DNA of 38,895 nt, taken from positions 1 to 38,895 of IMG/VR virus record IMGVR_UViG_3300032212_000067; one strand, given 5' to 3'. The translations under genes were made by a program, and so were the position numbers. Positions 14,272 through 38,895 of this stretch are shown piece by piece (position 1 is the first letter of the stretch; each line of letters starts with the position of its first letter). This stretch comes from a virus. Taxonomy: Duplodnaviria; Caudoviricetes. The notes beneath the pieces are model-generated. The model saw only the letters and a list, made by a program, of their open reading frames with translations. It had not been told where the DNA came from and searched no databases.

Positions 14272-15959
14272 AAGAGCCAGTTGTTTTAGAAATGTCTAAA
14301 TACGTTAAGCCTCCTGTTTATGAGCAAATAAATAAGGATTGGGTACTAAACGGTAGAAACAATTCTTTTTGGGATTACATACTTGACAGATATAACGGAA
14401 GCCCTACAAATGCTGCTATTGTTGATGCTTACATTGATAGGGTTTATGGTAAAGGTATTGCTATTGAAAGTGAAGATGTATCTGAGGATGTTTTAAATCA
14501 GATATTGAAAATACTAACACCTAAAGAGGCTAGGAAAGTAGTTTCTGATTATATCATGTTCGGTTCTGCGGTTATGCAGATTCGTTATTCTAAGTCAGAG
14601 GAAACAACAATAGCTAAAGTTGACCACTTAGAACGAAAATATGTAGCTCCTAACAAAATGAACGACAAAGGCGAGGTTGCTTTTTATTGGTTCTGTACAG
14701 ATTGGAGTAAAACAAACACAAATAAACCTAAAAGATTTGATGCTTTTGGAGCTTCAAATAAGAAAACTCAAATAGTCGAGATTAAGCCGTATAAGGCAGG
14801 TAAAGACTATTACGCAGACCCTCCGTATTTATCAGGATTGCAATATGCAGTTTTAGAAGAAGAGATAGCAAACTATAGTGTTAATCACATTATGAACGGT
14901 CTTTCCGCTGGTTACATACTGAATTTTAATGAGGGTGAGCCTGCTGAGGAGATTAAAGAGGAATTAGAAGCTAAGGTTAAGCGTAAAGTATCCGGTAGTA
15001 ATAATGCTGGTAAAGTTATTATATCATTTAACAACAGTAAAGAAACAGCACCAACAGTTGAAGCCCTTCCAACAAATACAAGCCATGAGGAGTGGCAATT
15101 ATGGACGGAGATAGCTAGACAGCAAATAATGGTTGCTCATAGGGTTACATCTCCTATGTTGTTTGGTATTAAAGATAACACGGGCTTAGGAAATAACGCT
15201 AATGAACTAAGAGAATCAACCCTATTACTTCACGAAACAGTTGTAAGACCAAAACAAAACCAGATTACAGAGGTATTTGAAGAAATATTTAAAGTAAACG
15301 GCATTGAAGAGGAATTAAGATTTATACCTCTTGAGGACGAGCAAGAAACAGAAGAATTAGCTAAAGAAAAGTCTGGTCTTGAAATGAACTCTCATTTTTC
15401 TGAAGAATCTAAAGCAGAAGAATTGATTGATTTAGGGGAGGACGAGAATGAGGACGAATGGACTTGTATAATGACTGAGGTTGTTGATTATGACAACGAG
15501 GATATGAAGGATAAGTTCTTGCAATTAGCCTCTACAGGAACAGCAATTCCTAACGCAAAGAGTGAGCAAGATTCTGATTTGTTTAAAGTAAGGTATCAAT
15601 ACGCTCCTTTAGTTGCGGGTAAAGACTCAAGAGATTTTTGTAAGAAGATGGTAAACGCTAAAAAAGTTTATCGTAAAGAGGATATTATAAGAATGGGTAG
15701 TCAATCCGTAAACCCAGGTTTCGGCCCAGGAGGTTCGGATACTTATTCTATATGGTTATACAAAGGAGGGGCTAGATGTTCCCATAAATGGCTTAGAAAA
15801 ACCTATGTAAAAAAAGGAAGAGAAAACGATGTTGATGTAAATAGTCCTTTAGCAGAAGTGATTAGTACAGCAGAGGCTAGGAGAAAAGGAGATAGAACAG
15901 TTAATGCTCCAGAGGTTTCGACGAAGCCAAGGGATATGCCAAATAAGGGTTTTTTATGA
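14268..15959 (+). CDS. portal protein with C-terminal MuF-like extension
   Basis: SPTNAAI...YGKG, SGSNNAGK, IMVAHRVTSPMLFG; acidic linker then SRDFC...KGGARCSHKW. Confidence 0.75.
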   Translation: MKEPVVLEMSKYVKPPVYEQINKDWVLNGRNNSFWDYILDRYNGSPTNAAIVDAYIDRVYGKGIAIESEDVSEDVLNQILKILTPKEARKVVSDYIMFGSAVMQIRYSKSEETTIAKVDHLERKYVAPNKMNDKGEVAFYWFCTDWSKTNTNKPKRFDAFGASNKKTQIVEIKPYKAGKDYYADPPYLSGLQYAVLEEEIANYSVNHIMNGLSAGYILNFNEGEPAEEIKEELEAKVKRKVSGSNNAGKVIISFNNSKETAPTVEALPTNTSHEEWQLWTEIARQQIMVAHRVTSPMLFGIKDNTGLGNNANELRESTLLLHETVVRPKQNQITEVFEEIFKVNGIEEELRFIPLEDEQETEELAKEKSGLEMNSHFSEESKAEELIDLGEDENEDEWTCIMTEVVDYDNEDMKDKFLQLASTGTAIPNAKSEQDSDLFKVRYQYAPLVAGKDSRDFCKKMVNAKKVYRKEDIIRMGSQSVNPGFGPGGSDTYSIWLYKGGARCSHKWLRKTYVKKGRENDVDVNSPLAEVISTAEARRKGDRTVNAPEVSTKPRDMPNKGFL

Positions 15960-16462
15960 AAGAGATTTGGAAAGACGTTGTTGGTTTCGAGAATTGTTAT
16001 GAAGTAAGTAGCAAAGGGGAAATAAGAAGTAAGGACAGATTTGTTAATCATTGGAGGGGCGGAGTAAGATTTTATAAGGGGAAAAATAAAAAATCGCGCA
16101 AAAACAAATATGGATATATGAGATGTAATCTTAAAACAAATGCTGAAAGATTTGATTTTTCTATCCATCAATTGGTTGCAAAAGCTTTTATACCTAATCC
16201 AGAGAATAAAGAGCATGTAAACCATAAGAACGGAATAAAAACAGACAACAGGTTGTCAAACCTTGAGTGGGTTACTCCTCAAGAGAATACCACTCACGCG
16301 GTGTCAAAGAGGTTAATAAAAACTAAGTTAAAGGATTCTGACGCATTGAAAATACATGATTCATTTTTAAGTATTAGAAAGTTAGCCTCATTGTTTGATG
16401 TTAATCCAAAAGTCATATGGAGGATAAAAAACGAAGTTTCATATAAACACCTTTGGAGCTAA
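15956..16462 (+). CDS. NUMOD4-HNH homing endonuclease
   Basis: EIWKDV.GFE..YEVSSKG.IRS (NUMOD4); HQLVAKAF...VNHKNGIKTDNRLSNLEW (HNH). Confidence 0.9.
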   Translation: MKEIWKDVVGFENCYEVSSKGEIRSKDRFVNHWRGGVRFYKGKNKKSRKNKYGYMRCNLKTNAERFDFSIHQLVAKAFIPNPENKEHVNHKNGIKTDNRLSNLEWVTPQENTTHAVSKRLIKTKLKDSDALKIHDSFLSIRKLASLFDVNPKVIWRIKNEVSYKHLWS

Positions 16463-27673: not shown

Positions 27674-28951
27674 ATGGTTAGTTACGATGATTATTTTGAA
27701 GAATTTCTTACCCTTTATGAATCTGACCCTGAAATATCAGGTGATAAAATGGCGGTTTCAAGATTTATTAAACACAAGTACGGAACTGAATTACAAGACA
27801 AATCCGTAAACGCAATTAGAAAAGCCTTATCTGAAAGGCTAGACCGGCACTATGCAGATATTGAGATAGTTGCTGAAAATGTAAAGTTTAAGAAAGAAAA
27901 GCAAAAAGCGCAAGATAAGAACAGAATAGCCAATAAGTCCTTTAGAGAACACGCTAGGTTAGAAAACGCACTACAGGAGTTTTCAAAGGCGCAAAAACAG
28001 GTTTATAAGGATTTTGGGAAAGAGCTTTCTACTATAAAACTAAAACCTACTCTTAAACCAAACAAAGGAGGGACTGGAGTAATGCAGATTACAGACCTTC
28101 ATGGTAACGAGCTTGTCGATTTGCCCCATAACAAATACGATTTTAACGTACTTTCAAAAAGGCTAAGATTATATGTACAAACCTGCTTATTGGATTTTAA
28201 GTTAAAAGGATACAAGGATGTTATAATGCTTTTTACTGGCGACCTTTTAAACTCAGACCGAAGGCTAGACGAATTATTAAATCAAGCCACGAATAGAGCA
28301 AAGGCAACTGGATTAATGCGATATATCATTACTCAAGCAATTATTGAGGTAAGAAACGCAGGGCATAACGTAAAGGTCATATCCGTACTAGGAAACGAAA
28401 GTAGAACAGGTAAAGAAATGCCGTTTAGCAATGAAGGGTTAAGCGATAACTACGATTTAATGATTATGGACGGAGTTAAAGATGTTATAGAGGCATCTGG
28501 TATTTCTGGTATTCAATTTTTAGATATTGATAAAGTAGAATGCGTTGTAAATATAGACGGCAACAAATGGCTAGTAGCTCACAACGTCAATAGGTCAGTA
28601 GATAATCAAAAGAATGCACAATCTGCAATAGGCAGAATGTCATTAAATGACCAAAAAATTAGATTTATAATAGGCGGTCATATACACGCAACTCATGTGA
28701 CGGACATTTCAGCACGTTCAGCCTCTATGGTAGGGGCTAATAGTTATTCTGAAAATGCATTAAACCTAGCGGGCAGGGCTGCTCAAAATTATTATCTATG
28801 TAGAAATGGAAGAATAACAACGGTTGTAGTCGATTTACAAGATGCTGAAGATATAGAAGGTTATGATATTATTCATAAACTAGAAGCTTACAACGCAAAA
28901 AGCGTTTCCAAGCTTAGAACCCCCAAGGTAATACACGAAATAGTAGTATAA
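27674..28951 (+). CDS. calcineurin-like metallophosphoesterase with N-terminal helical region
   Basis: TDLH, GDLL, GNE, AHN, GHIH motifs. Confidence 0.8.
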   Translation: MVSYDDYFEEFLTLYESDPEISGDKMAVSRFIKHKYGTELQDKSVNAIRKALSERLDRHYADIEIVAENVKFKKEKQKAQDKNRIANKSFREHARLENALQEFSKAQKQVYKDFGKELSTIKLKPTLKPNKGGTGVMQITDLHGNELVDLPHNKYDFNVLSKRLRLYVQTCLLDFKLKGYKDVIMLFTGDLLNSDRRLDELLNQATNRAKATGLMRYIITQAIIEVRNAGHNVKVISVLGNESRTGKEMPFSNEGLSDNYDLMIMDGVKDVIEASGISGIQFLDIDKVECVVNIDGNKWLVAHNVNRSVDNQKNAQSAIGRMSLNDQKIRFIIGGHIHATHVTDISARSASMVGANSYSENALNLAGRAAQNYYLCRNGRITTVVVDLQDAEDIEGYDIIHKLEAYNAKSVSKLRTPKVIHEIVV

Positions 28952-28974
28952 GGACTGATATAAAATAACACAAA

Positions 28975-29175
28975 ATGACAGTAAAAATTAAATTAAAAGA
29001 CACAACCACTCCGGTTTTTTACAATGGGGTGTTATCACATTTCTTAGAAGGAAATACATTAGCTCTTCTATTTGAAGACGGCTCTGTTCGTAATTTTCCC
29101 TTTATTCATATATGGTATTATGAGACAAAGCAAGAAAGGCTAAAAACCGAATCCCCAGAAGAGCAAAAACAATAA
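28975..29175 (+). CDS. hypothetical protein
   Basis: 66-aa ORF with an A-rich leader. Confidence 0.5.
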   Translation: MTVKIKLKDTTTPVFYNGVLSHFLEGNTLALLFEDGSVRNFPFIHIWYYETKQERLKTESPEEQKQ

Positions 29176-29230
29176 ACAGCACAAGTCCTATTCCTAATGT
29201 GTTTATGATGGCAATTTAAAAAAAAGACAA

Positions 29231-29575
29231 ATGAACTTTAAGAACTTATCAGAGAATTTAATAATAGTAATTGTTTCGGCATCATTAGGTGGTGTTATAG
29301 GATATACGGCTTCGACTAAAGCAAATAAGCAAGTAGTAACTCAATTAACGCCTACTATAGAAAAGGCTATTGATAAAGAAACTATAAAGAATGAGATTAA
29401 AAATGAAATTAAAATAGATAAGATTAAAAAATCTGATTCTATAAGAATAGTTTTAGACCCTACTAATAATCAAAAACCAATAAATGTAATTGGGGGTTGT
29501 TTTCACAAAGATAGTAGTGTTGTAGCCAACAAACATCTAACTAGAAAGCAAAAGAAAAGATTAGGTATTAAATAG
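29231..29575 (+). CDS. membrane-anchored protein (spanin-like candidate)
   Basis: N-terminal TM helix; last + strand gene. Confidence 0.45.
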   Translation: MNFKNLSENLIIVIVSASLGGVIGYTASTKANKQVVTQLTPTIEKAIDKETIKNEIKNEIKIDKIKKSDSIRIVLDPTNNQKPINVIGGCFHKDSSVVANKHLTRKQKKRLGIK

Positions 29576-29852
29576 CACTTAAAACACCCCTAGCAATTTT
29601 AACGGCTGCTTCTATTGATTGTTCATTTACACCATCCATAAAGCAAAGCCCATAAGCGGTATTAGAATCACAAATCAAGTCATTTCCCCTTTTGTAGAAA
29701 GTTCCGTCTAGTATTCTGTTATTTACTATGATGTTAAGATTTCCCATTATTCTATTAGTAGTTCTATTACGATACTTACCGAAACAATCAGCCAAAATAT
29801 AAGCCCGTTCTTGTCTTCTCCGTCTTTCATACCATGTCTTCAAAACTATCAT
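29568..29852 (-). CDS. hypothetical protein
   Basis: 94 aa, convergent with the late operon. Confidence 0.5.
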   Translation of the reverse strand: MIVLKTWYERRRRQERAYILADCFGKYRNRTTNRIMGNLNIIVNNRILDGTFYKRGNDLICDSNTAYGLCFMDGVNEQSIEAAVKIARGVLSAI

Positions 29853-29980
29853 TAATCACCTTTTGAATATCAGAAGGGATGTCTACCACTAAACCTATGG
29901 ATTCTTCAAAATTGAAATTAATATCCTTTTTTCCATTCTGAATAAGCCAATCATTAATTATATTGTTCTTATTGTATAAA

Positions 29981-30214
29981 CTAAAATTGAATTATAAAAT
30001 GCTTTCCTATCATCTTTAAATAAGGGTCGTTATTAGCTCTTAATCTAGCCTCCACTCCCTGAGGGCTTATCTTATTTATTTTTGCATATTCAGCCTTTGA
30101 AATGAACTTGTATTTTGTAACTAAAATTTTAGTCATTTCAAGTTCTTCAGTCATTGTAAATCTACCGCTGTCTATTGCTTTCTTGAATCTCTTAATGTTT
30201 TCAGTACTTTCCAT
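29981..30214 (-). CDS. small HTH-like (excisionase/MerR-type) DNA-binding candidate
   Basis: ISKAEYAKINKISPQGVEARLR followed by a beta-wing-like KMIGKHFII. Confidence 0.45.
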   Translation of the reverse strand: MESTENIKRFKKAIDSGRFTMTEELEMTKILVTKYKFISKAEYAKINKISPQGVEARLRANNDPYLKMIGKHFIIQF

Positions 30215-30303
30215 AGGTTTAATTTTGTAAGTAACGATATACCGTAGTTATGTACAAGCGCAATATCTGTACGCACTCAAAACGGTTATTTGCGCCAGTA
30301 CAT

Positions 30304-30711
30304 AACAATGCGTATAAAACATAGCTATGTAAGTGCTTAACCGTTTATTTAGTGCATATCTACCCATAATTAAATTATAAGGTTTGTACTCGTTCCATAA
30401 TATCGGTAACGTCTTGGTCGTTTTGATGCCCTAAAACATCGTCAGTTATAGGCGTGTTGTAAGTTAAAGAACCTTTATACATTACAGCTACTTCCCATAA
30501 GTTTGGGTATCCGTAAGAGCCATTAAATTTAACAACACTTACACCGTAATCATTATCAAAGTCCATTCTTGCTTGCACGCCATTACCTATTGGATGCGAT
30601 TTAAATTCTAAGTCTTTAAAAGTTTTCATTCTATTTTAATTTAATTATTAATTTCTGTTTTTATTCAAAAGTTTGTGCTTCGTAAACGCTACGTTTCATA
30701 CGCTAACCGTT
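30304..30711. repeat. A module enclosing an 84-aa gene
   Basis: AAC-aat-GCGTATAAAACATAGC ... GCTACGTTTCATACGC-taacc-GTT (14/16). Confidence 0.85.
30375..30629 (-). CDS. hypothetical phage protein
   Basis: F.NDYGVSVV...SYG...LWEVAV...TPITDDVLG; inside an A module. Confidence 0.75.
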   Translation of the reverse strand: MKTFKDLEFKSHPIGNGVQARMDFDNDYGVSVVKFNGSYGYPNLWEVAVMYKGSLTYNTPITDDVLGHQNDQDVTDIMERVQTL

Positions 30712-30712
30712 A

Positions 30713-31048
30713 TCAAAAATAATTTACTACTATCCACATCCAAATAAAGTGCATTACTTGGTCTACTACAAAATGACCCCAGGGCAAAGAGTTTTGCTTT
30801 AATTCGGTTTGAAACGAACCCATAGTTTTACACCACCATCCTACAAATGCAGTTCTATCTTGCAACCAATGTTGTACAGCTATCAAAGCTAATTGCAACC
30901 AACTTAATTCAGTCAATAAAAATGGGGTCATATAAAGCAAAACGTGCAGTGTGCATATCCAACTATTTTTCTTCTTTCCAACTGCTTGCCAGTCATTTTG
31001 TAGCAGAAAGTCGCCTATGAAGTGAGCGAGAACGTAAGGTAAATTCAT
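30713..31048 (-). CDS. DUF3307-like membrane protein
   Basis: AHFIGDFLLQ, H, H..QD, DQVMH motifs. Confidence 0.75.
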   Translation of the reverse strand: MNLPYVLAHFIGDFLLQNDWQAVGKKKNSWICTLHVLLYMTPFLLTELSWLQLALIAVQHWLQDRTAFVGWWCKTMGSFQTELKQNSLPWGHFVVDQVMHFIWMWIVVNYF

Positions 31049-31084
31049 CCGTAAATTACATTTGCTAACACCATATAAAATTAA

Positions 31085-31225
31085 TTACTTGGTGTTGGTT
31101 AATTTATTAAGTTTTTGCTCTAAAAAATTTAGATATTTAAAAGTGTTTTCTACAATCTCTTGTCTTTCCCCAGAGCTGGTTGCTTCCCAATAGTTTTTTA
31201 GAGTTAAATTTTTCGGCTTTTTCAT
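31085..31225 (-). CDS. small hypothetical protein (46 aa, not in ORF track)
   Basis: MKKPKNLTLKNYWEATSSGERQEIVENTFKYLNFLEQKLNKLTNTK; fills the loop of A module 31067-31282. Confidence 0.55.
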   Translation of the reverse strand: MKKPKNLTLKNYWEATSSGERQEIVENTFKYLNFLEQKLNKLTNTK

Positions 31226-31389
31226 TGTGTGTTTATTAATGTTTGAGTTTATCTTCCGTAACTAATCTTATATTTTAACGTTAATAGTTAATATTTGGCG
31301 TGTTCGTCGCTGTACTTTCAAACCTTTCGACTAAAACAAGGCGTTTATATTCCTTGTTGCGCTGGTACGATACGCCAAAAACTAACAAT

Positions 31390-32304
31390 AACACCGTATA
31401 TACGTAAAAAAGTAAAAGCCTTTGCGCTCTTCTTTAGCTTGTTTGCGCAAAAAGGTCGCCTTGTCTATTTTCATAGTTCGTTATTAATACTTCAGTTCGT
31501 CTGTTTTTTAAGTTATTACGTTCACCAATTACAATGATATTTAAACCACGTTTTTCTGCTTGTTCAATAATGAATGGTTGATTAAATTCACTTATTGCAA
31601 ATAAACATTTAGATTCTACCAACAAATCAAATAAATCAATACTATCTTGTTCTTTAAAACTATCGCTATAATTATCTTTAGTTTCTAAATAAGGTGGGTC
31701 GCAATAGATTAGTGTTTGTGCTTCTTGGTTTCTGCCATCTTGTATAAATCCTATTTTTTTTACAACTTCTCTAAAATCGCAATTCATTATTTTAACAGAA
31801 CTTAATTTATCAAATGTTAAGTCTATATTATCAATTAAATTTTGTTTTGGATTATCAGTTGTTCCCATTCTTAAACTTCCACCATTACCATGTAAAGTGC
31901 AATTACTAATAAACAAGAATCTTATTGCTTTTAAAATATTGTCTTGTTCTTGATTTTCCTTCCAGTAAGTTAAAATTTGTTGGTCTAAAGGTGTTTTTAT
32001 AAACTTCTCAACTAATTCGTTCTTATTGTTTTTTACTGTTAGCCATAAATTAAAAACATCAGAATCTAAATCATTTAGAAAGTTATATTTAACCATTGGC
32101 TTATTAAAGAACATTCCACCTGCACCAAAAAAAGGCTCAATATAAATTTTATGTGGAGGAAAATGCTTTTGTATTTCCTTTGCAATTTTCTTCTTGTTTC
32201 CTAATCTTCTTAAAATCATATTTTCTTACTGTTATAAATATTTGGGTTTTGCAAACCCATTGCCATCTTCTTTTTTTACTTTTCTACGTATATACGAATA
32301 CGTT
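31390..32304. repeat. A module enclosing the adenine methyltransferase
   Basis: GTATATACGTAAAAAAGTAAAA / TTTTACTTTTCTACGTATATAC (21/22) about 900 bp apart. Confidence 0.9.
31434..32219 (-). CDS. DNA adenine methyltransferase (Dam/D12 class)
   Basis: GNK, YIEPFFGAGG, NDLD, YCDPPY, EVLITNY. Confidence 0.92.
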   Translation of the reverse strand: MILRRLGNKKKIAKEIQKHFPPHKIYIEPFFGAGGMFFNKPMVKYNFLNDLDSDVFNLWLTVKNNKNELVEKFIKTPLDQQILTYWKENQEQDNILKAIRFLFISNCTLHGNGGSLRMGTTDNPKQNLIDNIDLTFDKLSSVKIMNCDFREVVKKIGFIQDGRNQEAQTLIYCDPPYLETKDNYSDSFKEQDSIDLFDLLVESKCLFAISEFNQPFIIEQAEKRGLNIIVIGERNNLKNRRTEVLITNYENRQGDLFAQTS

Positions 32305-32441
32305 ATGTGTAATGGTGGTTTAAGTTTGTTGCAGTTCGTTTCACAATCCTCATTGCCAACGTATTTTCGCTAGACTAGACTAGTGCATTAAAACCACCAC
32401 TACAAGCGCAAAAAAGCGCACATAACAAAGTGTATAATTAA

Positions 32442-32726
32442 TTAAAAAAGGTCTGTGATTACTCTATCAACAGAAGGTTTTAATAATTTAAACATTTCAG
32501 CCTTATTTGGGTCAACGTCTTTTTCCTCTACTGTAAACCAGAACAAAACCGCTAATGTTATTCCTACTTTGTCCGCAATTTTTTCTAAAACTTCGGTACT
32601 TGGTTTTTTCTTGTTATTTTCAATTCCAGATAAATAACTTTGTGTTATTCCTACAAGTTCACAAAATTGCTTTTGGTTTAAGCCTTTGTTCTTTCTTACT
32701 GTTTTTACTGCTTTTCCTATGTTCAT
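32442..32726 (-). CDS. XRE-family HTH regulator
   Basis: IGKAVKTVRKNKGLNQKQFCELVGITQSYLSGIENNKKKPS. Confidence 0.9.
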   Translation of the reverse strand: MNIGKAVKTVRKNKGLNQKQFCELVGITQSYLSGIENNKKKPSTEVLEKIADKVGITLAVLFWFTVEEKDVDPNKAEMFKLLKPSVDRVITDLF

Positions 32727-32752
32727 TATATAAAAATGTTTAAATTATTAAC

Positions 32753-32783
32753 CAAAGGTAATATATTATTTCCAATGGCACAA
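32753..32783 (-). promoter_or_regulatory. Bacteroidota housekeeping-type promoter for the XRE gene
   Basis: - strand TTG (32783-32781), N20, TACCTTTG (32760-32753). Confidence 0.6.
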
Positions 32784-32993
32784 GTTTTAACCCATTTTTT
32801 TAACTAATCATACACAACAACGTTCACGGGCATAACCTCAGCACGGCAACCTCAACTCACTAACGTTCGACTTCGGTAGCCTTAGCTTCACATACGAGAA
32901 ACAAAACTACTTTCATCCGTTTTCCTTATTTCTCTAATGCCCGTGAACGAAGCGCAGATACAGAAAAAAGGGGCGAGCAATGCTACGCATTGA

Positions 32994-33623
32994 CTAAAAA
33001 TCAACTAACTCATACTGTAAAATAAGTTCCTTTATAACTCTATCAACTTTCTGACAATTATCAGTTATTTGAAACATCGCAGGCTCATTGTAAAGGTTGT
33101 CAACCGTAAATGGAACACCTAAAACCTCACTAGAGTCTTTTTCAAATCCTCTCTCTTCAACAATCCAAATAGAACCTTTATCACAACTCATAGTATGAAA
33201 GTCGAAAGTTCCTAAGTGAAGTTTAGAGCCGACAGGTAGCCTACATTCTTTCGCCTTTACCTCAACTTCCTTGACGTAATTCAAGCCATTACCACCATTT
33301 AAAACACTCTTGTAATTAAACAATGACATAATTAACCCACCACTATACAAAGCGTTTGAATCTGAATTTGTTTCAGCGGTATGATGTGTAATATTTCCTT
33401 TTAACGTAGTTATAGTTACGGGGTATCTATGAGTATGGTACTGCACATCAAAAGGCTTTAATTTCTTGTGAGCAATAAAAATCCTTGTCAATTTGCCAAA
33501 CTCTGTACCATCTATTACTAAAGAAAAAACGCCTTTTGCATGAACATTTCTCATTGAAAATTTTAGGCTTTCGTTGTTTGGCTTATTCATCTTTTCCAAG
33601 ATGGTTTTTAAAAATTCTTTCAT
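32994..33623 (-). CDS. hypothetical protein, possible cupin fold
   Basis: YHTHRY...LKG...FHTM...WIVEE pattern. Confidence 0.6.
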   Translation of the reverse strand: MKEFLKTILEKMNKPNNESLKFSMRNVHAKGVFSLVIDGTEFGKLTRIFIAHKKLKPFDVQYHTHRYPVTITTLKGNITHHTAETNSDSNALYSGGLIMSLFNYKSVLNGGNGLNYVKEVEVKAKECRLPVGSKLHLGTFDFHTMSCDKGSIWIVEERGFEKDSSEVLGVPFTVDNLYNEPAMFQITDNCQKVDRVIKELILQYELVDF

Positions 33624-33829
33624 AATCAGTATTTAAGTGAGCATACTTGCCCGTTTAGTTTCTAATTGTATGTGCGTTACGACCCGTGAACACTAGATAT
33701 TTTTCCATTGCCTACGGCAAGCCCCTTTTTTCTGTCTGTCGCCTTTCGTACTTTCCGCAATACAAATGAATTTGATTGCTCTCGTACACGGCAACAGAAC
33801 ATATCTGCGCTTCGTTGTAAGTAATAAAA

Positions 33830-34132
33830 TCACTTTACTACTTTTATTTTTATAACATTGGTAAACATTTCATTTACTTGTTCAATATCATTCACCTTTA
33901 CTATTTTGGTTTCTTTAGTGCTATAATCGTCTAATAGTGCGTGTCCGCTATCGTGCCATTTTAAGTAAGTAACAGAAACAGTGATTTTACTACTCACAAC
34001 ACTGTATATACTTAATTGCTTTAATAGATAATCTACAAACTCATCGCTATAAGTACCGCTTGGTAACATTTGCCCATTCCCATCATAAATGCTATTTCCT
34101 GTTTCTAATTCGTATTTGTGTTTAAAGTCCAT
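33830..34132 (-). CDS. chimeric A/B-module protein
   Basis: Crosses junction 33998-34000 (LSIYS-V-VSS). Confidence 0.7.
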   Translation of the reverse strand: MDFKHKYELETGNSIYDGNGQMLPSGTYSDEFVDYLLKQLSIYSVVSSKITVSVTYLKWHDSGHALLDDYSTKETKIVKVNDIEQVNEMFTNVIKIKVVK

Positions 34133-34292
34133 TACTGTCTATTTAATTTATTACTAATTTCACGCAACTAAGCATATACTTTAACGTTGTAGTTAACCCT
34201 TCGGGTCGGCTGAAAAGCCTTAACCACAACACTGTATAACACCCATACTAAAGGTAGTTGCCTAATCGATGTTAGGTGCTTATCATCAATAA

Positions 34293-34613
34293 TTAAACAT
34301 TTTTTGCCAACGCTCTTTTAAACTCTCTCATTAATTGTCGCCATTCATTTAATTTTTCATCATCTGCTTTATCAAAGTTTTTTATATCATTTTCATATTT
34401 CCATTCCAGACCAGTCAGTGCATCTTCAAAGGCGTTTAAGAAGTCTTTAGAATAAGCAATCAATATTGCATTATGATACGCTTCTACTTCACCGCCAACA
34501 CCAGGCCATACAGTTGTATTGCACACTGTAGCATTTTCGTTTCCTATTCCATATTGCTTCATAGGTCTTCTACTTACAATATTCCATTTGCCTTTAGTTC
34601 CTTTAAATTCCAT
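34293..34613 (-). CDS. hypothetical phage protein
   Basis: MEFKGTKGKW...NAILIA motif; inside A module 34228-34697. Confidence 0.75.
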   Translation of the reverse strand: MEFKGTKGKWNIVSRRPMKQYGIGNENATVCNTTVWPGVGGEVEAYHNAILIAYSKDFLNAFEDALTGLEWKYENDIKNFDKADDEKLNEWRQLMREFKRALAKNV

Positions 34614-34707
34614 CGCTTAAAATGTTTAATTATTTAGATTCGTTTTTTAATTTGAAAGTCGTTTTGTGTTTGCCGTACGGGTGTTATACTAAACGTTGTG
34701 TGTAATA

Positions 34708-34917
34708 CTAACAACTACCATATCTAAAACTCCCAAATCCTTCACCATCGTATTCTTCATCTATAAAGAATCCAAGTTTATCAAGTTCTTCAATATCTTC
34801 CTTGCTTACTAACTCAGGGTTTATGTCTACATAAAAGTAGTCGTGTTCACAATGGCTTGGATTTCTTGGATTGCCATATTTTAAAAGGATTTGTAATGCT
34901 TTTATTAAATCTTCCAT
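34708..34917 (-). CDS. hypothetical protein
   Basis: Likely start MEDLIKALQILLKYGN at 34917; PSHCEHD; frame is open back to the junction GTT at 34959. Confidence 0.7.
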   Translation of the reverse strand: MEDLIKALQILLKYGNPRNPSHCEHDYFYVDINPELVSKEDIEELDKLGFFIDEEYDGEGFGSFRYGSC

Positions 34918-34956
34918 CTTTCTATTTAGTTTGCGGCTTAATACCGTACTACACAC

Positions 34957-35044
34957 AACAATGTATATAGTTTATAAGCCTAATTAATATTCGTTTTTAA
35001 TTGTAAATTTCTGCTATGGCTTACAAAACCATATACTCAACGTT
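34957..35044. repeat. empty 88-bp attC-sized A module
   Basis: AAC-aat-GTATATAGTTTATAAGCC ... GGCTTACAAAACCATATAC-tcaac-GTT. Confidence 0.8.
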
Positions 35045-35054
35045 GTAGATAATA

Positions 35055-35342
35055 TTACTTTTTATTCATTTCTTCTTGTAGTTTTTTACCAATTTCTTGC
35101 AACCTTTCAACTCTTTGTTTATCCCAAAGTAATAGCCTAACATTTGTTTTTTTACCGTTTACATAAGTATCTACATATCCTTTATCATCTACTTCACCAC
35201 AAGTAATACTATCAACAACAAAAGGTATAGTGCATTGCTCTATCTCGTTTATCAAGTCTTGCTTGTCGTGCCAAGTACTTATATGGTCTTGGTCGTTATC
35301 AAACCGCCAATATTGGTTTATCAAATTAATTATTTTTCTCAT
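35055..35342 (-). CDS. chimeric A/B-module protein
   Basis: Crosses junction 35217-35219 (CTIPF-V-VDS). Confidence 0.7.
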   Translation of the reverse strand: MRKIINLINQYWRFDNDQDHISTWHDKQDLINEIEQCTIPFVVDSITCGEVDDKGYVDTYVNGKKTNVRLLLWDKQRVERLQEIGKKLQEEMNKK

Positions 35343-35399
35343 CAGTATATATTTATTAAAATCTGTTCTTAATTCCGCAACACACCATACCTAAACACG

Positions 35400-35912
35400 T
35401 TATATGCAATTATTTAAAATTGCCACCGCACCGTCAACCATATTGTCAGTTAATCCTATTTCGCTGTTTGTATTAAGGTAGTGGGCTTTTTGTTCTAATA
35501 ACATATCAGTATCATCATCAAGTATCACGTAAGTAAAATCCTTTCCCAGCTCTTTTCTTTCCCAATTCTTTCCGTTGTCAGAATGTATGTGCGTATCTAT
35601 CCATTGTTTTATCTCAACACCTCTTGGTATAGATAGGTGTATTCCTGTTCCTTTTTCAAGGTATTGATAGGCTCTAATTGTTACGCCTATCAAGCTATCA
35701 TTATACAAGAAACCTTCATTTTTCATATGTTCTTTAGTCCTTTCTAAAGTCGCATATCGCCAAGAAGAAGATAAAACAATTTTAGCCTGTGTTTGGTCAA
35801 GTATTTTACCAAGTAACTTTTGTTTCTCATCAGACAAAGCCCACAATCCATCTTTTAAACAGCTCGGCACTGCTAAAACGCCATCTATGTCTAAGAATAT
35901 AATTTTTTCCAT
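35400..35912 (-). CDS. HAD-domain phosphatase (Swiss Army Knife RNA-repair-like HAD family)
   Basis: FLDIDGVL, IVLSSSWR, RGVEIKQW, YVILDDD; likely start ATG 35912. Confidence 0.85.
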   Translation of the reverse strand: MEKIIFLDIDGVLAVPSCLKDGLWALSDEKQKLLGKILDQTQAKIVLSSSWRYATLERTKEHMKNEGFLYNDSLIGVTIRAYQYLEKGTGIHLSIPRGVEIKQWIDTHIHSDNGKNWERKELGKDFTYVILDDDTDMLLEQKAHYLNTNSEIGLTDNMVDGAVAILNNCI

Positions 35913-35990
35913 CGCTAAAATTTTAAATAACAGTTCGCTTCGCCATATAACAACGGCTAAATCAGCATTGAAAAGCAGTTTAGCCAAACG

Positions 35991-36287
35991 TTAGTGTGCA
36001 TAGTCTTTACATTCTATTGGCATATCCAGTTCAGCGGTGTTTGTTATTCCATCCCAATGGTTCATGCTACACCAAAATTCTGGGTATGGTTGGTCATGTT
36101 GCGGGCTTTCATAGTGCATATTTTTACATTTTCCGCAACTACGCACACTAACACTATCTATAGCTAATTGCGCTTCGAGGTCGTTTATTAACTCTAGGGT
36201 TTTAGTTATTAGAATTTCTTCACGTTCTGTTGTGAATTTTGGTTTTTCAGTTCCAGTTAATTTGTATAATAATTCTTCTCTTGTCAT
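35991..36287 (-). CDS. chimeric A/B-module protein, Cys-rich C-terminus
   Basis: Crosses junction 36150-36152 (LAIDS-V-SVRSCGKC). Confidence 0.7.
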   Translation of the reverse strand: MTREELLYKLTGTEKPKFTTEREEILITKTLELINDLEAQLAIDSVSVRSCGKCKNMHYESPQHDQPYPEFWCSMNHWDGITNTAELDMPIECKDYAH

Positions 36288-36422
36288 AATTTATTAAGGT
36301 TTGTGATTAATCGGCAACTAGCCATAGATTTAACGTTGTAGGTAATGGCGCATACGTGTTACTCACTCATACGCTTTAGGTGCGCCACTACCCACAACAC
36401 GGTATATAATTAAAAAATAATA

Positions 36423-36614
36423 CTACTCTTCGTCAAGTATTACAACTTCATCACGCGAAAGAACTTCACCGTTTGGCTCTTCCATAAAGTTTATTTCCTG
36501 TTTGCTAACGGAGTTTAAAAGTCCGTATGTAAATTCAGTTTTTCGCTCTGCCATAAATACTTCCATATTTTCAGGGTATTGGCTTAATGTTTCTATCAGT
36601 TTTTTTACTGTCAT
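36423..36614 (-). CDS. hypothetical phage protein
   Basis: MTVKKLIETLSQYPENMEV N-terminus; inside an A module. Confidence 0.75.
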   Translation of the reverse strand: MTVKKLIETLSQYPENMEVFMAERKTEFTYGLLNSVSKQEINFMEEPNGEVLSRDEVVILDEE

Positions 36615-36678
36615 AATTTTAGTTTTTTAATCCGTATTATTTTCAAATCATATACCATCAACGTTGTAGTGCATTGTG

Positions 36679-36942
36679 CTAATAGCTAAAGTATTTACCG
36701 CATTTGCATTTTATTTGCCTGTCTGTGATGAATGTCAAATCTTTAAATTTATGTTCGCACAACGTACCCTTCGGCACAACAACAACGGGTATATCCAAAT
36801 TATTTACTTGCTCTTGTGCAAACGATACAATTTTGTGAGCCGTGTCAAATCTATTTCCAATAATTTTCCCTTCAATAATTTCTAAATTATCGTCTAATAT
36901 AGATAAAGCTTTATTAAATAGAATTTCGTATTCAGTAGTCAT
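36679..36942 (-). CDS. chimeric A/B-module protein (MTTEY N-terminus, variant 1)
   Basis: Crosses junction 36781-36783; C-terminus CEH...CKCG. Confidence 0.75.
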   Translation of the reverse strand: MTTEYEILFNKALSILDDNLEIIEGKIIGNRFDTAHKIVSFAQEQVNNLDIPVVVVPKGTLCEHKFKDLTFITDRQIKCKCGKYFSY

Positions 36943-36992
36943 AATCTTGTATTTTTTAATCCGTAAATAATCAGTACATACCCTCGAACGTT
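36781..36992. repeat. 212-bp A module, copy 1
   Basis: Direct repeat of 38517-38728, 15 differences by manual count. Confidence 0.95.
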
Positions 36993-37004
36993 GTAGAACA
37001 TAAC

Positions 37005-37241
37005 TTACTCAGTTTGTTTTGCATCCCAACAAGGGTAGCATAATCCAACATTTAAGTCGTGTGTCTTTCTTCCGCATTTACAGGTAAGTGACGGCTCTAC
37101 AACATTGGGTATAGATAATACCTCAAGTTCGTACATTATAATAGCGTTTTCATCTATTGCTCTTATCTTATCTTCAATCTGTTTTCTTTGCTCAAGAAGT
37201 TGTTTTACTTCTTTATCTTCTGTAATATTTGTCCAGTCCAT
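37005..37241 (-). CDS. chimeric A/B-module protein, Cys-rich C-terminus
   Basis: Crosses junction 37101-37103 (LSIPN-V-VEP); CKCG...CYPC. Confidence 0.7.
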   Translation of the reverse strand: MDWTNITEDKEVKQLLEQRKQIEDKIRAIDENAIIMYELEVLSIPNVVEPSLTCKCGRKTHDLNVGLCYPCWDAKQTE

Positions 37242-37291
37242 TTTTATAAAGTTTCAGGTCAATAAATCGGTACTATCCATACCCTTGTCCG

Positions 37292-37936
37292 TTAGCCACA
37301 AGCTGATACGTCCTCGCTTTTAATGAAGTTTCCCCATTGTTCAGCCATAGCTTTTGCAATTCCGCTAAAAGTTTTACTGCTTTCCTTTTGGCTTATGTTC
37401 TTAAATTGGTATTTCTGTCCTCGTTTCTTACCACCTGTATTACTTGGTAAGTACGGCTTATAGTCGCTTACTATTTCGGTTGGGCTTAATAGTGGTAAAT
37501 TTTTAAGCCACAGCAGGGTTCTTTTGCTATAAGGGTGTCCGTACTCGTAGGGTTGTACCGCTTGGCTTTGTTTAGGTAATCCAACTACTTTTAATGGTGT
37601 TGGGTTCTCAACCGCAATATAAGGTATTGGAGCGTTCAATAGTTTCATAAACAAATCCTTCGCTTCCATTGCTTTATTAAATCGTTCTTGGCTTAAATTC
37701 CCTGCTGTTGGGTACATCCATCTTGCACCTGCTCTACTAATATAAGTACAAGGTGGGTGTGCTATCATTAAGTCATATTTACCACTATACGCTTCCGCAA
37801 CTGCATCGCCCTTTATATGCCATTCAGGTTTATCGCCACTACATTCTTGTATGTCACAGCTATAAGCCTCAAATCCTAATTCTCGGAAAGCCTTACAAAC
37901 TTCTTGGCTCTCTTCACAAGCTATTAATATTTTCAT
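37292..37936 (-). CDS. phage C5 DNA cytosine methyltransferase-like protein
   Basis: ILIACEES, DLMIAHPPC, VENP, K.TLLWL, GIAKAMAEQWG. Confidence 0.75.
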   Translation of the reverse strand: MKILIACEESQEVCKAFRELGFEAYSCDIQECSGDKPEWHIKGDAVAEAYSGKYDLMIAHPPCTYISRAGARWMYPTAGNLSQERFNKAMEAKDLFMKLLNAPIPYIAVENPTPLKVVGLPKQSQAVQPYEYGHPYSKRTLLWLKNLPLLSPTEIVSDYKPYLPSNTGGKKRGQKYQFKNISQKESSKTFSGIAKAMAEQWGNFIKSEDVSACG

Positions 37937-38122
37937 TTTATTTAATTTTAGTTCTTAATTTACCGCAGCCAGATGGCTAACAACGGCTATATGTCCATAT
38001 TCCTATCGTCATACGGCACATAACCAAACCGTTGTAAAACATTAAAACGATTTTACAACACGCTATATAAATAATGCTTGGTTTCGTGCTATAATTAAAG
38101 TTTAATGCTTTTAATTCCATAA

Positions 38123-38326
38123 TTAATATTTAAAAAATTGGTATTTAGGTTTAAATTTAAAAATACTTTCTGCTGTTCTTATTATCCAAACTCGGTAATA
38201 CCTTAGTGCTTCTTCTTTAGTCTTTCCGTTTGGGTCTAAGTAGTTTCCAGTATCAACATAATATTTACCATTCCTTTCAAAGAACTTTATTTTTCGTCTG
38301 CATTTTTTAAGAAGTTTCGTTTTCAT
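38123..38326 (-). CDS. small basic hypothetical protein
   Basis: 67 aa inside A module 38057-38406. Confidence 0.65.
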   Translation of the reverse strand: MKTKLLKKCRRKIKFFERNGKYYVDTGNYLDPNGKTKEEALRYYRVWIIRTAESIFKFKPKYQFFKY

Positions 38327-38414
38327 TTTTAAATATTAATTATTAGTTCTGTACTTAATTCAAAGGTTAGTACATTTTATCCGCACTATTCATATAGCAA
38401 TTCGTTAGTAACAA

Positions 38415-38678
38415 TTATAATTGCTGTCCTATTTTATCGTGAAAGCAGTTGCAATTTTTACACCTAAATATTGGCTCTTTAACTATGTTAGTGCTGTTGC
38501 AATTAGAACAATTACTAACAACGGGTATATCCAAATTATTTACTTGCTCTTGTGCAAACGAAATAATTTTATGAGCTGTTGCAAATCTATTTCCGATAAT
38601 TTTTCCACCTATAATTTCTAAGTTTTCATCTAATATAGATAGAGCTTTATTAAATAGAATTTCGTATTCAGTAGTCAT
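38415..38678 (-). CDS. chimeric A/B-module protein (MTTEY N-terminus, variant 2)
   Basis: Crosses junction 38517-38519; C-terminus CSNC...CKNC. Confidence 0.75.
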   Translation of the reverse strand: MTTEYEILFNKALSILDENLEIIGGKIIGNRFATAHKIISFAQEQVNNLDIPVVSNCSNCNSTNIVKEPIFRCKNCNCFHDKIGQQL

Positions 38679-38728
38679 AATCTTGTATTTTTTAATCCGT
38701 AAATAATCAGTACATACCCTCGAACGTT
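38517..38728. repeat. 212-bp A module, copy 2
   Basis: Direct repeat of 36781-36992. Confidence 0.95.
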
Positions 38729-38809
38729 ACCTGCCATAATAAATAAAAAAATAGGCGCTCACTCGGTCGTCTGTGTAGGTGCAAAACGTTTCATACACTC
38801 GTGTATAAA

Positions 38810-38895
38810 TCATATTACACTTAACCAATTATCGTATATCCTACTTGCTATCTGCGCTATCATTACAGGTGGCACACTCATTCCAATCATATATG
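38810..38895 (-). CDS. C-terminal fragment of a C5 cytosine methyltransferase (cut by window edge)
   Basis: YMIGMSVPPVMIAQIASRIYDNWLSVI-stop resembles motif X (GNAVPP). Confidence 0.7.
   Translation of the reverse strand, partial: YMIGMSVPPVMIAQIASRIYDNWLSVI

Follow-up and report, generated by a model that had tools for sequence, protein, structure and literature searches.

Gene cassettes exchanged at GTT in a hairpin array of a tailed phage: a likely integron-like system distinct from classical integrons

In integrons, a tyrosine recombinase lies beside a docking site that forms no hairpin, cassettes are bounded by GTT and have complementary core ends, structure rather than sequence is kept, and the bottom strand folds better than the top one. 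All of these traits are found again in the system to which the array described here belongs. This array occupies the right arm of the window, a 38,895-nt stretch that is the complete record of a tailed phage, but a partial genome (IMG/VR record IMGVR_UViG_3300032212_000067). Among the closest described relatives are the integrase-less attC clusters (CALINs) reported in virulent phages, including Polaribacter phage P12002L (Qi 2023, PMC9892861). Two P12002L sites were cloned in that study as ordinary attC: P12002L_attC1, which has the geometry of the window's site family, was the only one of six sites that IntI1 did not integrate, and the second has a left arm of this family together with a non-GTT end. 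Our own scan of P12002L detected at least 10 sites on one strand. The window shares with these CALINs a site cluster without integrase and with DNA methyltransferase genes, and P12002L carries its site family; the enzyme, the attI-like site, the inverted genes and the loop cargo presented below are not mentioned in the accessible text of PMC9892861. Our literature search, whose coverage excluded subscription journals and bioRxiv supplements, returned no description of the system beyond these two sites, and the papers on phages Freya and Ingeline may mention a variable region.

An initial annotation of the window had recognised the geometry of integron attC sites. This holds for the AAC and GTT cores, the complementary ends and the bottom-strand fold, but not for extrahelical bases, spacer or length. 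The array sites lack extrahelical bases, carry fixed G·T wobbles and have spacers of 2-3 and 4-7 nt. The modal length of the family (~123 nt) is close to that of sedentary integron sites (120-129 nt, PMC5371416); however, its sites reach ~1,300 nt, and it fits neither the central spacer (5 and 6 nt) nor the length range (57-141 nt) of attC. Gene orientation also differs: host cassettes of this system follow the usual integron arrangement (55/59 open reading frames, ORFs, on the top strand), whereas phage cassettes do not (209/213 on the bottom strand), and phage genes often start in a hairpin or lie wholly inside it. Partner change at AAC is frequent and, in hosts, the recombinase points towards the array. 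An attI-type docking site and GTT exchange with complementary core ends are present, but the enzyme lacks the catalytic-domain insertion of IntI integrases. The system works like an integron; by enzyme and site it is not a member of that class.

We call A module each AAC…GTT hairpin (A1-A17), B module each GTT…AAC segment, and cassette a B module with the hairpin that follows it. In the window, morphogenesis genes occupy the + strand up to ~29.6 kb and small - strand genes follow. This right arm is a row of 17 small cassettes (Table 1): 17 A modules span 30304-38728 and alternate with 17 B modules, the first from 30247, while an 18th B begins at 38726 and is cut by the contig end. Between 30201 and 38895, 15 AAC…CGTT stems score at least 8.5, against 0-1 per block shuffle (12 shuffles) and none on the opposite strand; the structural arm (29.5 kb) holds one stem at a cut-off of 9. 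Stem arms pair with their own partner (mean score 11.0 vs 3.4 for cross pairs), and the two ends of a B module match at 6.5 of 9 positions, vs 2.9 with other segments (0/100,000 permutations as high) and 3.2 of 9 with the flank across the same hairpin. The stems run ungapped and the genes sit on the bottom strand. These measurements bear out the initial annotation on the alternating A and B modules, on stems that differ but pair with their own partner, on self-complementary B ends, on genes opposite to the usual cassette orientation and on the near absence of clear extrahelical bases, the stems having no bulges.

Each GTT-to-GTT cassette usually carries one main bottom-strand gene, which lies within B (cassettes 2, 5, 8, 10, 15), reads across AAC with its 5′ part in the hairpin (6, 9, 11, 13, 14, 17) or is contained whole in the loop, after an empty B (1, 3, 4, 7, 12, 16). 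As modules, the window hairpins measure 44-915 nt. The A5 first proposed (32946-33816, symmetric and perfect) is present, but cassette 5 is better parsed with a 128-nt site at 33689-33816. Under this parse coding sequence occurs in 13/17 hairpins, the number originally given, and in 14 under the earlier one; a whole gene is found in only six (seven under the earlier parse), and six carry the 5′ part of a gene. A flavobacterium is the probable host: the nearest terminase is that of Flavobacterium phage 11b (37%), and matches to the cassettes occur in phages of Polaribacter, Cellulophaga and Maribacter. The genome continues for ~3.8 kb beyond the window end in a contig of run X1. No longer assembly of the right end was found among viral records; the cluster of the A4 protein does list a 49,764-nt contig.

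Related phages gain, lose and swap pieces exactly at GTT, and the basic mobile unit is the GTT-to-GTT segment. For comparison, phage and host loci were collected and labelled with L-numbers; L271, the window's own contig, is excluded from every count. In all five relatives above 88% DNA identity, the cassette-15 unit starts at GTT beside unrelated neighbours, and it ends in the next GTT region in three, at AAC in one and just before AAC in one. Among the other 75 loci of that search, most of the 28 displayed do not show these ends and several frame the gene elsewhere. In 97 site clusters, we took the pairs with 85% identity or more on one side of a GTT; identity on the opposite side attained 70% in 1/63 and 1/21 of them. 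Excluded from these counts were 89 intervals whose B ends are not complementary (for the most part missed sites) and, for each junction type, one pair that was nearly identical. Bottom-strand ORFs of at least 70 aa cross AAC at 104/393 hairpins and GTT at 5/393. The Freya isolates are nearly identical phages. Relative to Freya_10, the records Freya_2, 5 and 9 are without 4,100, 3,198 and 307 nt, each time from the terminal, attI-like GTT to a later GTT. At this GTT, beside the phage's own recombinase, Freya_6 carries a new unit of 472 nt made of a B and a hairpin; the Freya_8 record falls short by as much as one GTT-to-GTT block measures, a loss deduced from length (for Freya_6, 8 and 9, record starts only were compared). 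New cassettes enter at the attI-like site, as shown in these Freya isolates. Between P12002L and P12002S, several difference edges fall at GTT and one at AAC.

The terminal site of the window resembles the recombinase-adjacent site of phage loci L133, L182, L177, L005 and L202 and of host loci, and it is exactly at the GTT of this site that Freya variants differ. An IntI-related recombinase occurs in 24/41 sampled genomes of one family, the Flavobacteriaceae. We retrieved 19 host loci (18 of 25 recombinase matches plus one earlier locus), of which 14 display the recombinase, a GATATA…GTT half-site and then sites (84 on the top strand, 1 on the bottom). The phage version, a 260-280-aa recombinase on the bottom strand, stands beside the first site in 5/44 clusters, and a short recombinase occupies the same place in Freya and Ingeline. 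Recombinases near arrays score 96-214 bits against TIGR02249 (cut-off 265), in two stretches; the Ingeline enzyme can be aligned over its full length with XerA, and with 2A3V over residues 8-175 only. The array-adjacent enzymes lack the IntI insertion, their best structural relatives by sequence are XerA proteins, then VchIntIA, and they are distinct from the host XerC/XerD, which were found separately. The candidate enzyme is thus far a short IntI-related tyrosine recombinase. Like the Xer-like and integron-like simple tyrosine recombinases (PMC8138268) it has two domains, but it differs by its place beside cassette arrays. The initial annotation had proposed a phage gene-cassette shuffling system; breaks at GTT and partner change at AAC in related phages, which are not collinear there, support this proposal, as gains, losses and neighbour changes break at GTT. 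The tyrosine recombinase that it suggested seeking in hosts has its counterpart in the related enzyme, with the same sites, of Flavobacteriaceae chromosomes.

Altogether, we favour, with a probability of about 0.82, the reading that gene cassettes are gained, lost and reordered exactly at GTT; the likely mechanism is an integron-like one, with folded single-stranded sites as the substrate of a short tyrosine recombinase. In the excised circle the B ends would pair, and the folded bottom strand would form a two-ended stem around AAC/GTT with cargo in either loop; such a stem would explain why each cassette holds one gene, in B, across AAC or inside the hairpin. The recombinase would cut this folded strand at GTT and the unit would insert at the attI-like site. 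For the window phage, the enzyme could be provided by the host, by a co-infecting phage or by the missing part of the genome. The single-strand chemistry, the circles, the source of the enzyme and the loading of loops (below) are what we infer for this system.

Comparison of related modules also shows hairpins that have changed partners at AAC, swapping the C-termini of proteins. The identity between A13 and A17 is 93% and spans exactly the AAC-to-GTT interval; the proteins of cassettes 13 and 17 have one N-terminus and two C-termini. This duplication has about double depth in run X1, whose contig graph also allows the 1,736-nt stretch between A13 and A17 as a separate circle. L290 and L048 present the same AAC-edge pattern with a 195-nt hairpin, A2 is common to phage phi12:1 from AAC to GTT (88%) between different neighbours, the end of B1 precedes a different hairpin in L323, and edges at AAC itself are also seen in L292/L323. 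In the 97 clusters, identity is carried across AAC in 1/57 and 2/13 pairs. In integrons, crossovers fall in the AAC box when the top strand is recombined, and strand choice is partly lost if the extrahelical bases are missing (PMC2727003). By analogy, exchange at AAC likely proceeds through top-strand recombination, since the extrahelical bases by which integrons enforce strand choice are absent from the sites.

The alternative that survives best accepts that GTT exchange is site-specific, and attributes the partner change at AAC and the loading of loops to ordinary phage recombination or to template switching at the conserved AT-rich arms and at translation-start regions. We give it serious weight, if less than even odds. 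Arms are similar across cassettes, the left arm of A2 differs from that of phi12:1 within the stem, and the other side of AAC stays slightly above background (56-60% on average vs 51%), so that some linkage remains. What it explains poorly is the placing of edges at AAC itself, in A13/A17, L290/L048, L292/L323 and P12002L vs P12002S.

The same alternative bears on the loops. Among the cassette ORFs of other phages, 27 lie in loops, 25 of them after a B of at most 150 nt. The 29-nt blank B15 matches an estimated 210 viral stretches; in 69 distinct contexts of blank B, 56 continue into a hairpin, and 40 have a whole gene in the loop, from 38 families. The A16 shell recurs nine times with other genes and the A1 shell three times (L202, L302 and L327; one shared). 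We found no unloaded copy of either shell, and saw no whole-loop gene in 59 host cassettes. A perfect inner inverted repeat of at least 11 bp is present in 25/54 long hairpins, vs 0/162 shuffles; 15 of the 25 lie ~62 nt from both ends, and of 8 variable positions 7.6 agree between own partners, vs 3.8. In the window, such repeats occur in A1, A7 and A16, plus A4 at other offsets, and none was found in A3, A12 or the read-through hairpins. The left inner arm of A4 is conserved coding sequence (at the protein level, in 10/10 homologues retrieved, of 45), so the arm before the gene likely arose as a copy of it or was selected to match it. When loop flanks were tested for descent from standard 112-132-nt sites, only A1 right, A16 left and A16 right exceeded the shuffle maximum (3 of the 11 flanks long enough). 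Homologues of the genes of cassettes 3 and 5 occur outside cassettes (L009, without sites, for the cassette-3 methyltransferase; L272 and L273 for cassette 5), and genes are loaded where ordinary ~123-nt sites have their CATAATT start-codon region, as ordinary recombination would have it; inner repeats at a fixed offset that match only their own partner argue the other way. A bolder idea, which we consider unlikely, is that the hairpin loop is the birthplace of cassettes: an empty chassis (29-nt blank B plus ~124-nt site) would capture phage genes centrally by templated fold-back synthesis, leaving a partner-specific inner repeat ~62 nt from the ends and, with GTT and AAC crossovers, making a three-level system of capture, shuffling and N-/C-terminal rebuilding.

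Some further features of sites and loops were observed. Site lengths in host loci L253-L269 and phage clusters group near 45, 85, 123 and 187 nt; 124 and 187 are about two and three times 62, the inner-repeat offset. Arms evolve much faster than the loops or genes they enclose, with compensation on both sides (37979-38033 vs L033-L037; 30247-30711 vs L128). Unloaded ~125-nt loops after blank B (L196, L277, L322, L133) contain repeated TCGAACC, GGTTCGA on the bottom strand; these resemble tRNA T-arms, and small-RNA cargo is possible. The loop word CATTAAAACG is shared by blank B segments and by the shortest hairpins, where it stands in the loop (window 38031-38059; L003, L033, L286), hinting that B and A modules share an origin.

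With DNA parameters, the bottom strand is predicted to be more stable in 16/17 window sites, and in 16/17 the circle form is favoured over the linear one; within whole modules the stem has a probability of at least 0.8 in 15/17, including the 915-nt module (these predictions used the earlier A5 parse). In 13/17 stems the first 12 bp are ungapped with at most two non-wobble mismatches; among the four others, A5, A10 and A15 have 3-4. Spacer asymmetry is 2-4 in 221/226 sites (the detector allowed 1-4), and 320 of the 419 stem mismatches in these 226 sites are A·C on the top strand, hence G·T on the bottom one, and occupy fixed positions. An improbable explanation is that the stems are RNA signals, for processing or for closing gene 5′/3′ ends to time translation, with mosaicism due to ordinary recombination at gene borders. 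It agrees with the folding, G·T-compatible strand being the mRNA strand in phages, and with inner repeats that pair the region before the start codon with the gene end; an added RNA role of the inner repeat may exist. However, in host arrays the genes flip strand, yet 102/131 mismatches are still A·C; DNA rather than mRNA folding is therefore indicated. Furthermore, block edges are exact at GTT, from an attI-like site beside a recombinase; terminator-like sites stay at chance level (6 vs 4.4±2.2); and an Rfam scan of 28000-38895 gave no family match, with two chance-level hits outside the array. A promoter scan also gave chance levels.

That the array is a classical CALIN, with ordinary attC moved by a host IntI, is hardly tenable: AAC…GTT cores, bottom-strand folding and complementary ends would fit, and HattCI/IntegronFinder flagged such sites in P12002L (PMC9892861), but bulged bases are absent, the asymmetry of 2-4 compares with 1 in attCaadA7, neighbouring enzymes fall below the IntI cut-off, IntI1 did not integrate P12002L_attC1, and IntI1 is unable to delete a cassette if both sites lack extrahelical bases (PMC2727003). 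The loop cargo also differs from known insertions in attC, being made of unrelated small genes without reverse transcriptase or transposase and with variable flanking repeats. IS1111-attC elements insert into attC sites. Group IIC-attC introns place extra DNA within the recombination hairpin (PMC3001079).

Several points weigh against the integron-like reaction, besides the residual linkage across AAC and the identity of folding and mRNA strands in phages. Searches with PF00589, PHROGs and Pfam found no recombinase in the window, where an unrelated 77-aa ORF fills its usual position, and only 5/22 terminal blank-B contexts have one within 1.3 kb. No circles or rearranged joints were found in run X1 (contigs only, depth ~11). 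A2 and A15 fold poorly as whole modules. Freya records begin and end in the variable region, so that assembly may account for some of their differences; short hairpins might belong to shared families instead of having moved. Our literature search found no biochemical tests of the array-adjacent enzymes. Two kinds of joints were set aside: joint 30703-30247 in run X2, considered as a circle, is explained by the site's own symmetry and was rejected, and short X2/X3 joints across loops have unknown middles and were not used as evidence.

Table 1. Cassettes and associated features of the array (window positions)
Feature	Position	Strand	Description
attI-like terminal site GATATAC-CGTA-GTT	30236..30249	+	right half-site without hairpin partner
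Cassette 1	30247..30711	+	empty B0 + hairpin A1 (30304-30711); 84-aa loop gene 30375-30629, -
Cassette 1 inner inverted repeat	30366-77/30637-48		
Cassette 2	30709..31282	+	B1 with DUF3307 gene (30713-31048, -; Pfam) + hairpin A2 (31067-31282)
Cassette 2 second ORF			46 aa, within A2
Cassette 3	31280..32304	+	empty B2 + hairpin A3 (31390-32304, 23-bp stem)
Cassette 3 loop gene	31434-32219	-	Dam-family adenine methyltransferase (Pfam)
Cassette 4	32302..32824	+	empty B3 + hairpin A4 (32424-32824); XRE-type helix-turn-helix (HTH) loop gene 32442-32726, -
Cassette 4 inner 18-bp repeat	32480-97/32734-51		left inner arm is native coding sequence
Cassette 5	32822..33816	+	209-aa gene (32994-33623, -) + 128-nt site 33689-33816
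Cassette 6	33814..34188	+	B5 + A6 (33998-34188); 100-aa gene begins in loop, crosses AAC
Cassette 7	34186..34697	+	empty B6 + A7 (34228-34697); 106-aa loop gene
Cassette 7 inner 16-bp repeat	34288-303/34619-34		
Cassette 8	34695..35044	+	69-aa gene in B7 + short hairpin A8 (34957-35044)
Cassette 9	35042..35401	+	B8 + A9 (35217-35401); 95-aa gene crosses AAC
Cassette 10	35399..35992	+	HAD_SAK_2 gene in B9 (35400-35912, -; Pfam) + 44-nt hairpin A10 (35949-35992)
Cassette 11	35990..36337	+	B10 + A11 (36150-36337); 98-aa gene crosses AAC
Cassette 12	36335..36665	+	empty B11 + A12 (36396-36665); 63-aa loop gene
Cassette 13	36663..36992	+	B12 + A13 (36781-36992); 87-aa gene crosses AAC
Cassette 14	36990..37293	+	B13 + A14 (37101-37293); 78-aa gene crosses AAC
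Cassette 15	37291..38033	+	DNA methyltransferase gene in B14 (37292-37936, -; phrog_757) + 55-nt hairpin A15 (37979-38033)
Cassette 16	38031..38406	+	29-nt blank B15 + A16 (38057-38406); 67-aa loop gene
Cassette 16 inner 18-bp repeat	38119-36/38326-43		
Cassette 17	38404..38728	+	B16 + A17 (38517-38728); 87-aa gene
18th cassette, start	38726..38895	+	cut by contig end

The cargo, with two DNA methyltransferases, an HTH regulator and a HAD_SAK_2 protein, likely consists of early host-adaptation genes. Cassette 1 is also present in Freya_10, with arms changed in a compensating manner, B7 is common to L033 from near GTT, A8 to L029, and the arms of A13 to phage Panino; no relatives of the cassette-13 protein were found. 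The site of cassette 5 has the usual length and spacing and a weak stem, and no match to the DNA of this cassette was found among cultured phages. Positions 32938-32961 are the exact 24-nt reverse complement of the cassette 5 circle junction, and no other cassette has such a perfect match above 10 nt. The whole of 32938-32983 is a patchwork inverted copy of the cassette 5 site, with these 24 nt followed by 14 nt of the site's loop, a pattern suggestive of template switching on a circle. In L048, L049, L052, L053, L057, L058, L062 and L042, sites frame the cassette-15 methyltransferase family at other positions, and in some cases the start lies within a hairpin; this varied framing suggests repeated independent capture. 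In L036, near 5245, cassette 15 is preceded by a GGT-GTT site without a hairpin, which recalls the terminal sites of Freya and Ingeline. On the - strand of 30247-30367, an ORF of ~40 codons, detected by eye, starts behind the A1 loop gene and crosses AAC into the empty B0; its A16 counterpart has 47 aa (37977-38120). The rest of the genome encodes GIY-YIG and HNH endonucleases, a sigma-factor-like gene and a metallophosphoesterase-type exonuclease (540-1001, 1061-1507, 15956-16462, 27674-28951).

Integron surveys find almost no integrons in Bacteroidetes (PMC9024848); yet a recombinase of this type is present in 24/41 genomes, most examined loci have arrays behind it and many phages share the sites. 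A second integron chemistry, without extrahelical bases and without the IntI insertion, would show how single-strand recombination evolves. Exchange inside reading frames is also a route to new small phage proteins. As for the origin of cassettes, no reliable model exists (PMC4792948). Relevant to this genesis are the many unrelated genes seen in one shell, a loading point that does not vary and repeats that look fresh; loop capture, if true, would offer a visible route for it. The cultured phage-host pairs of Freya and Ingeline make the system testable.

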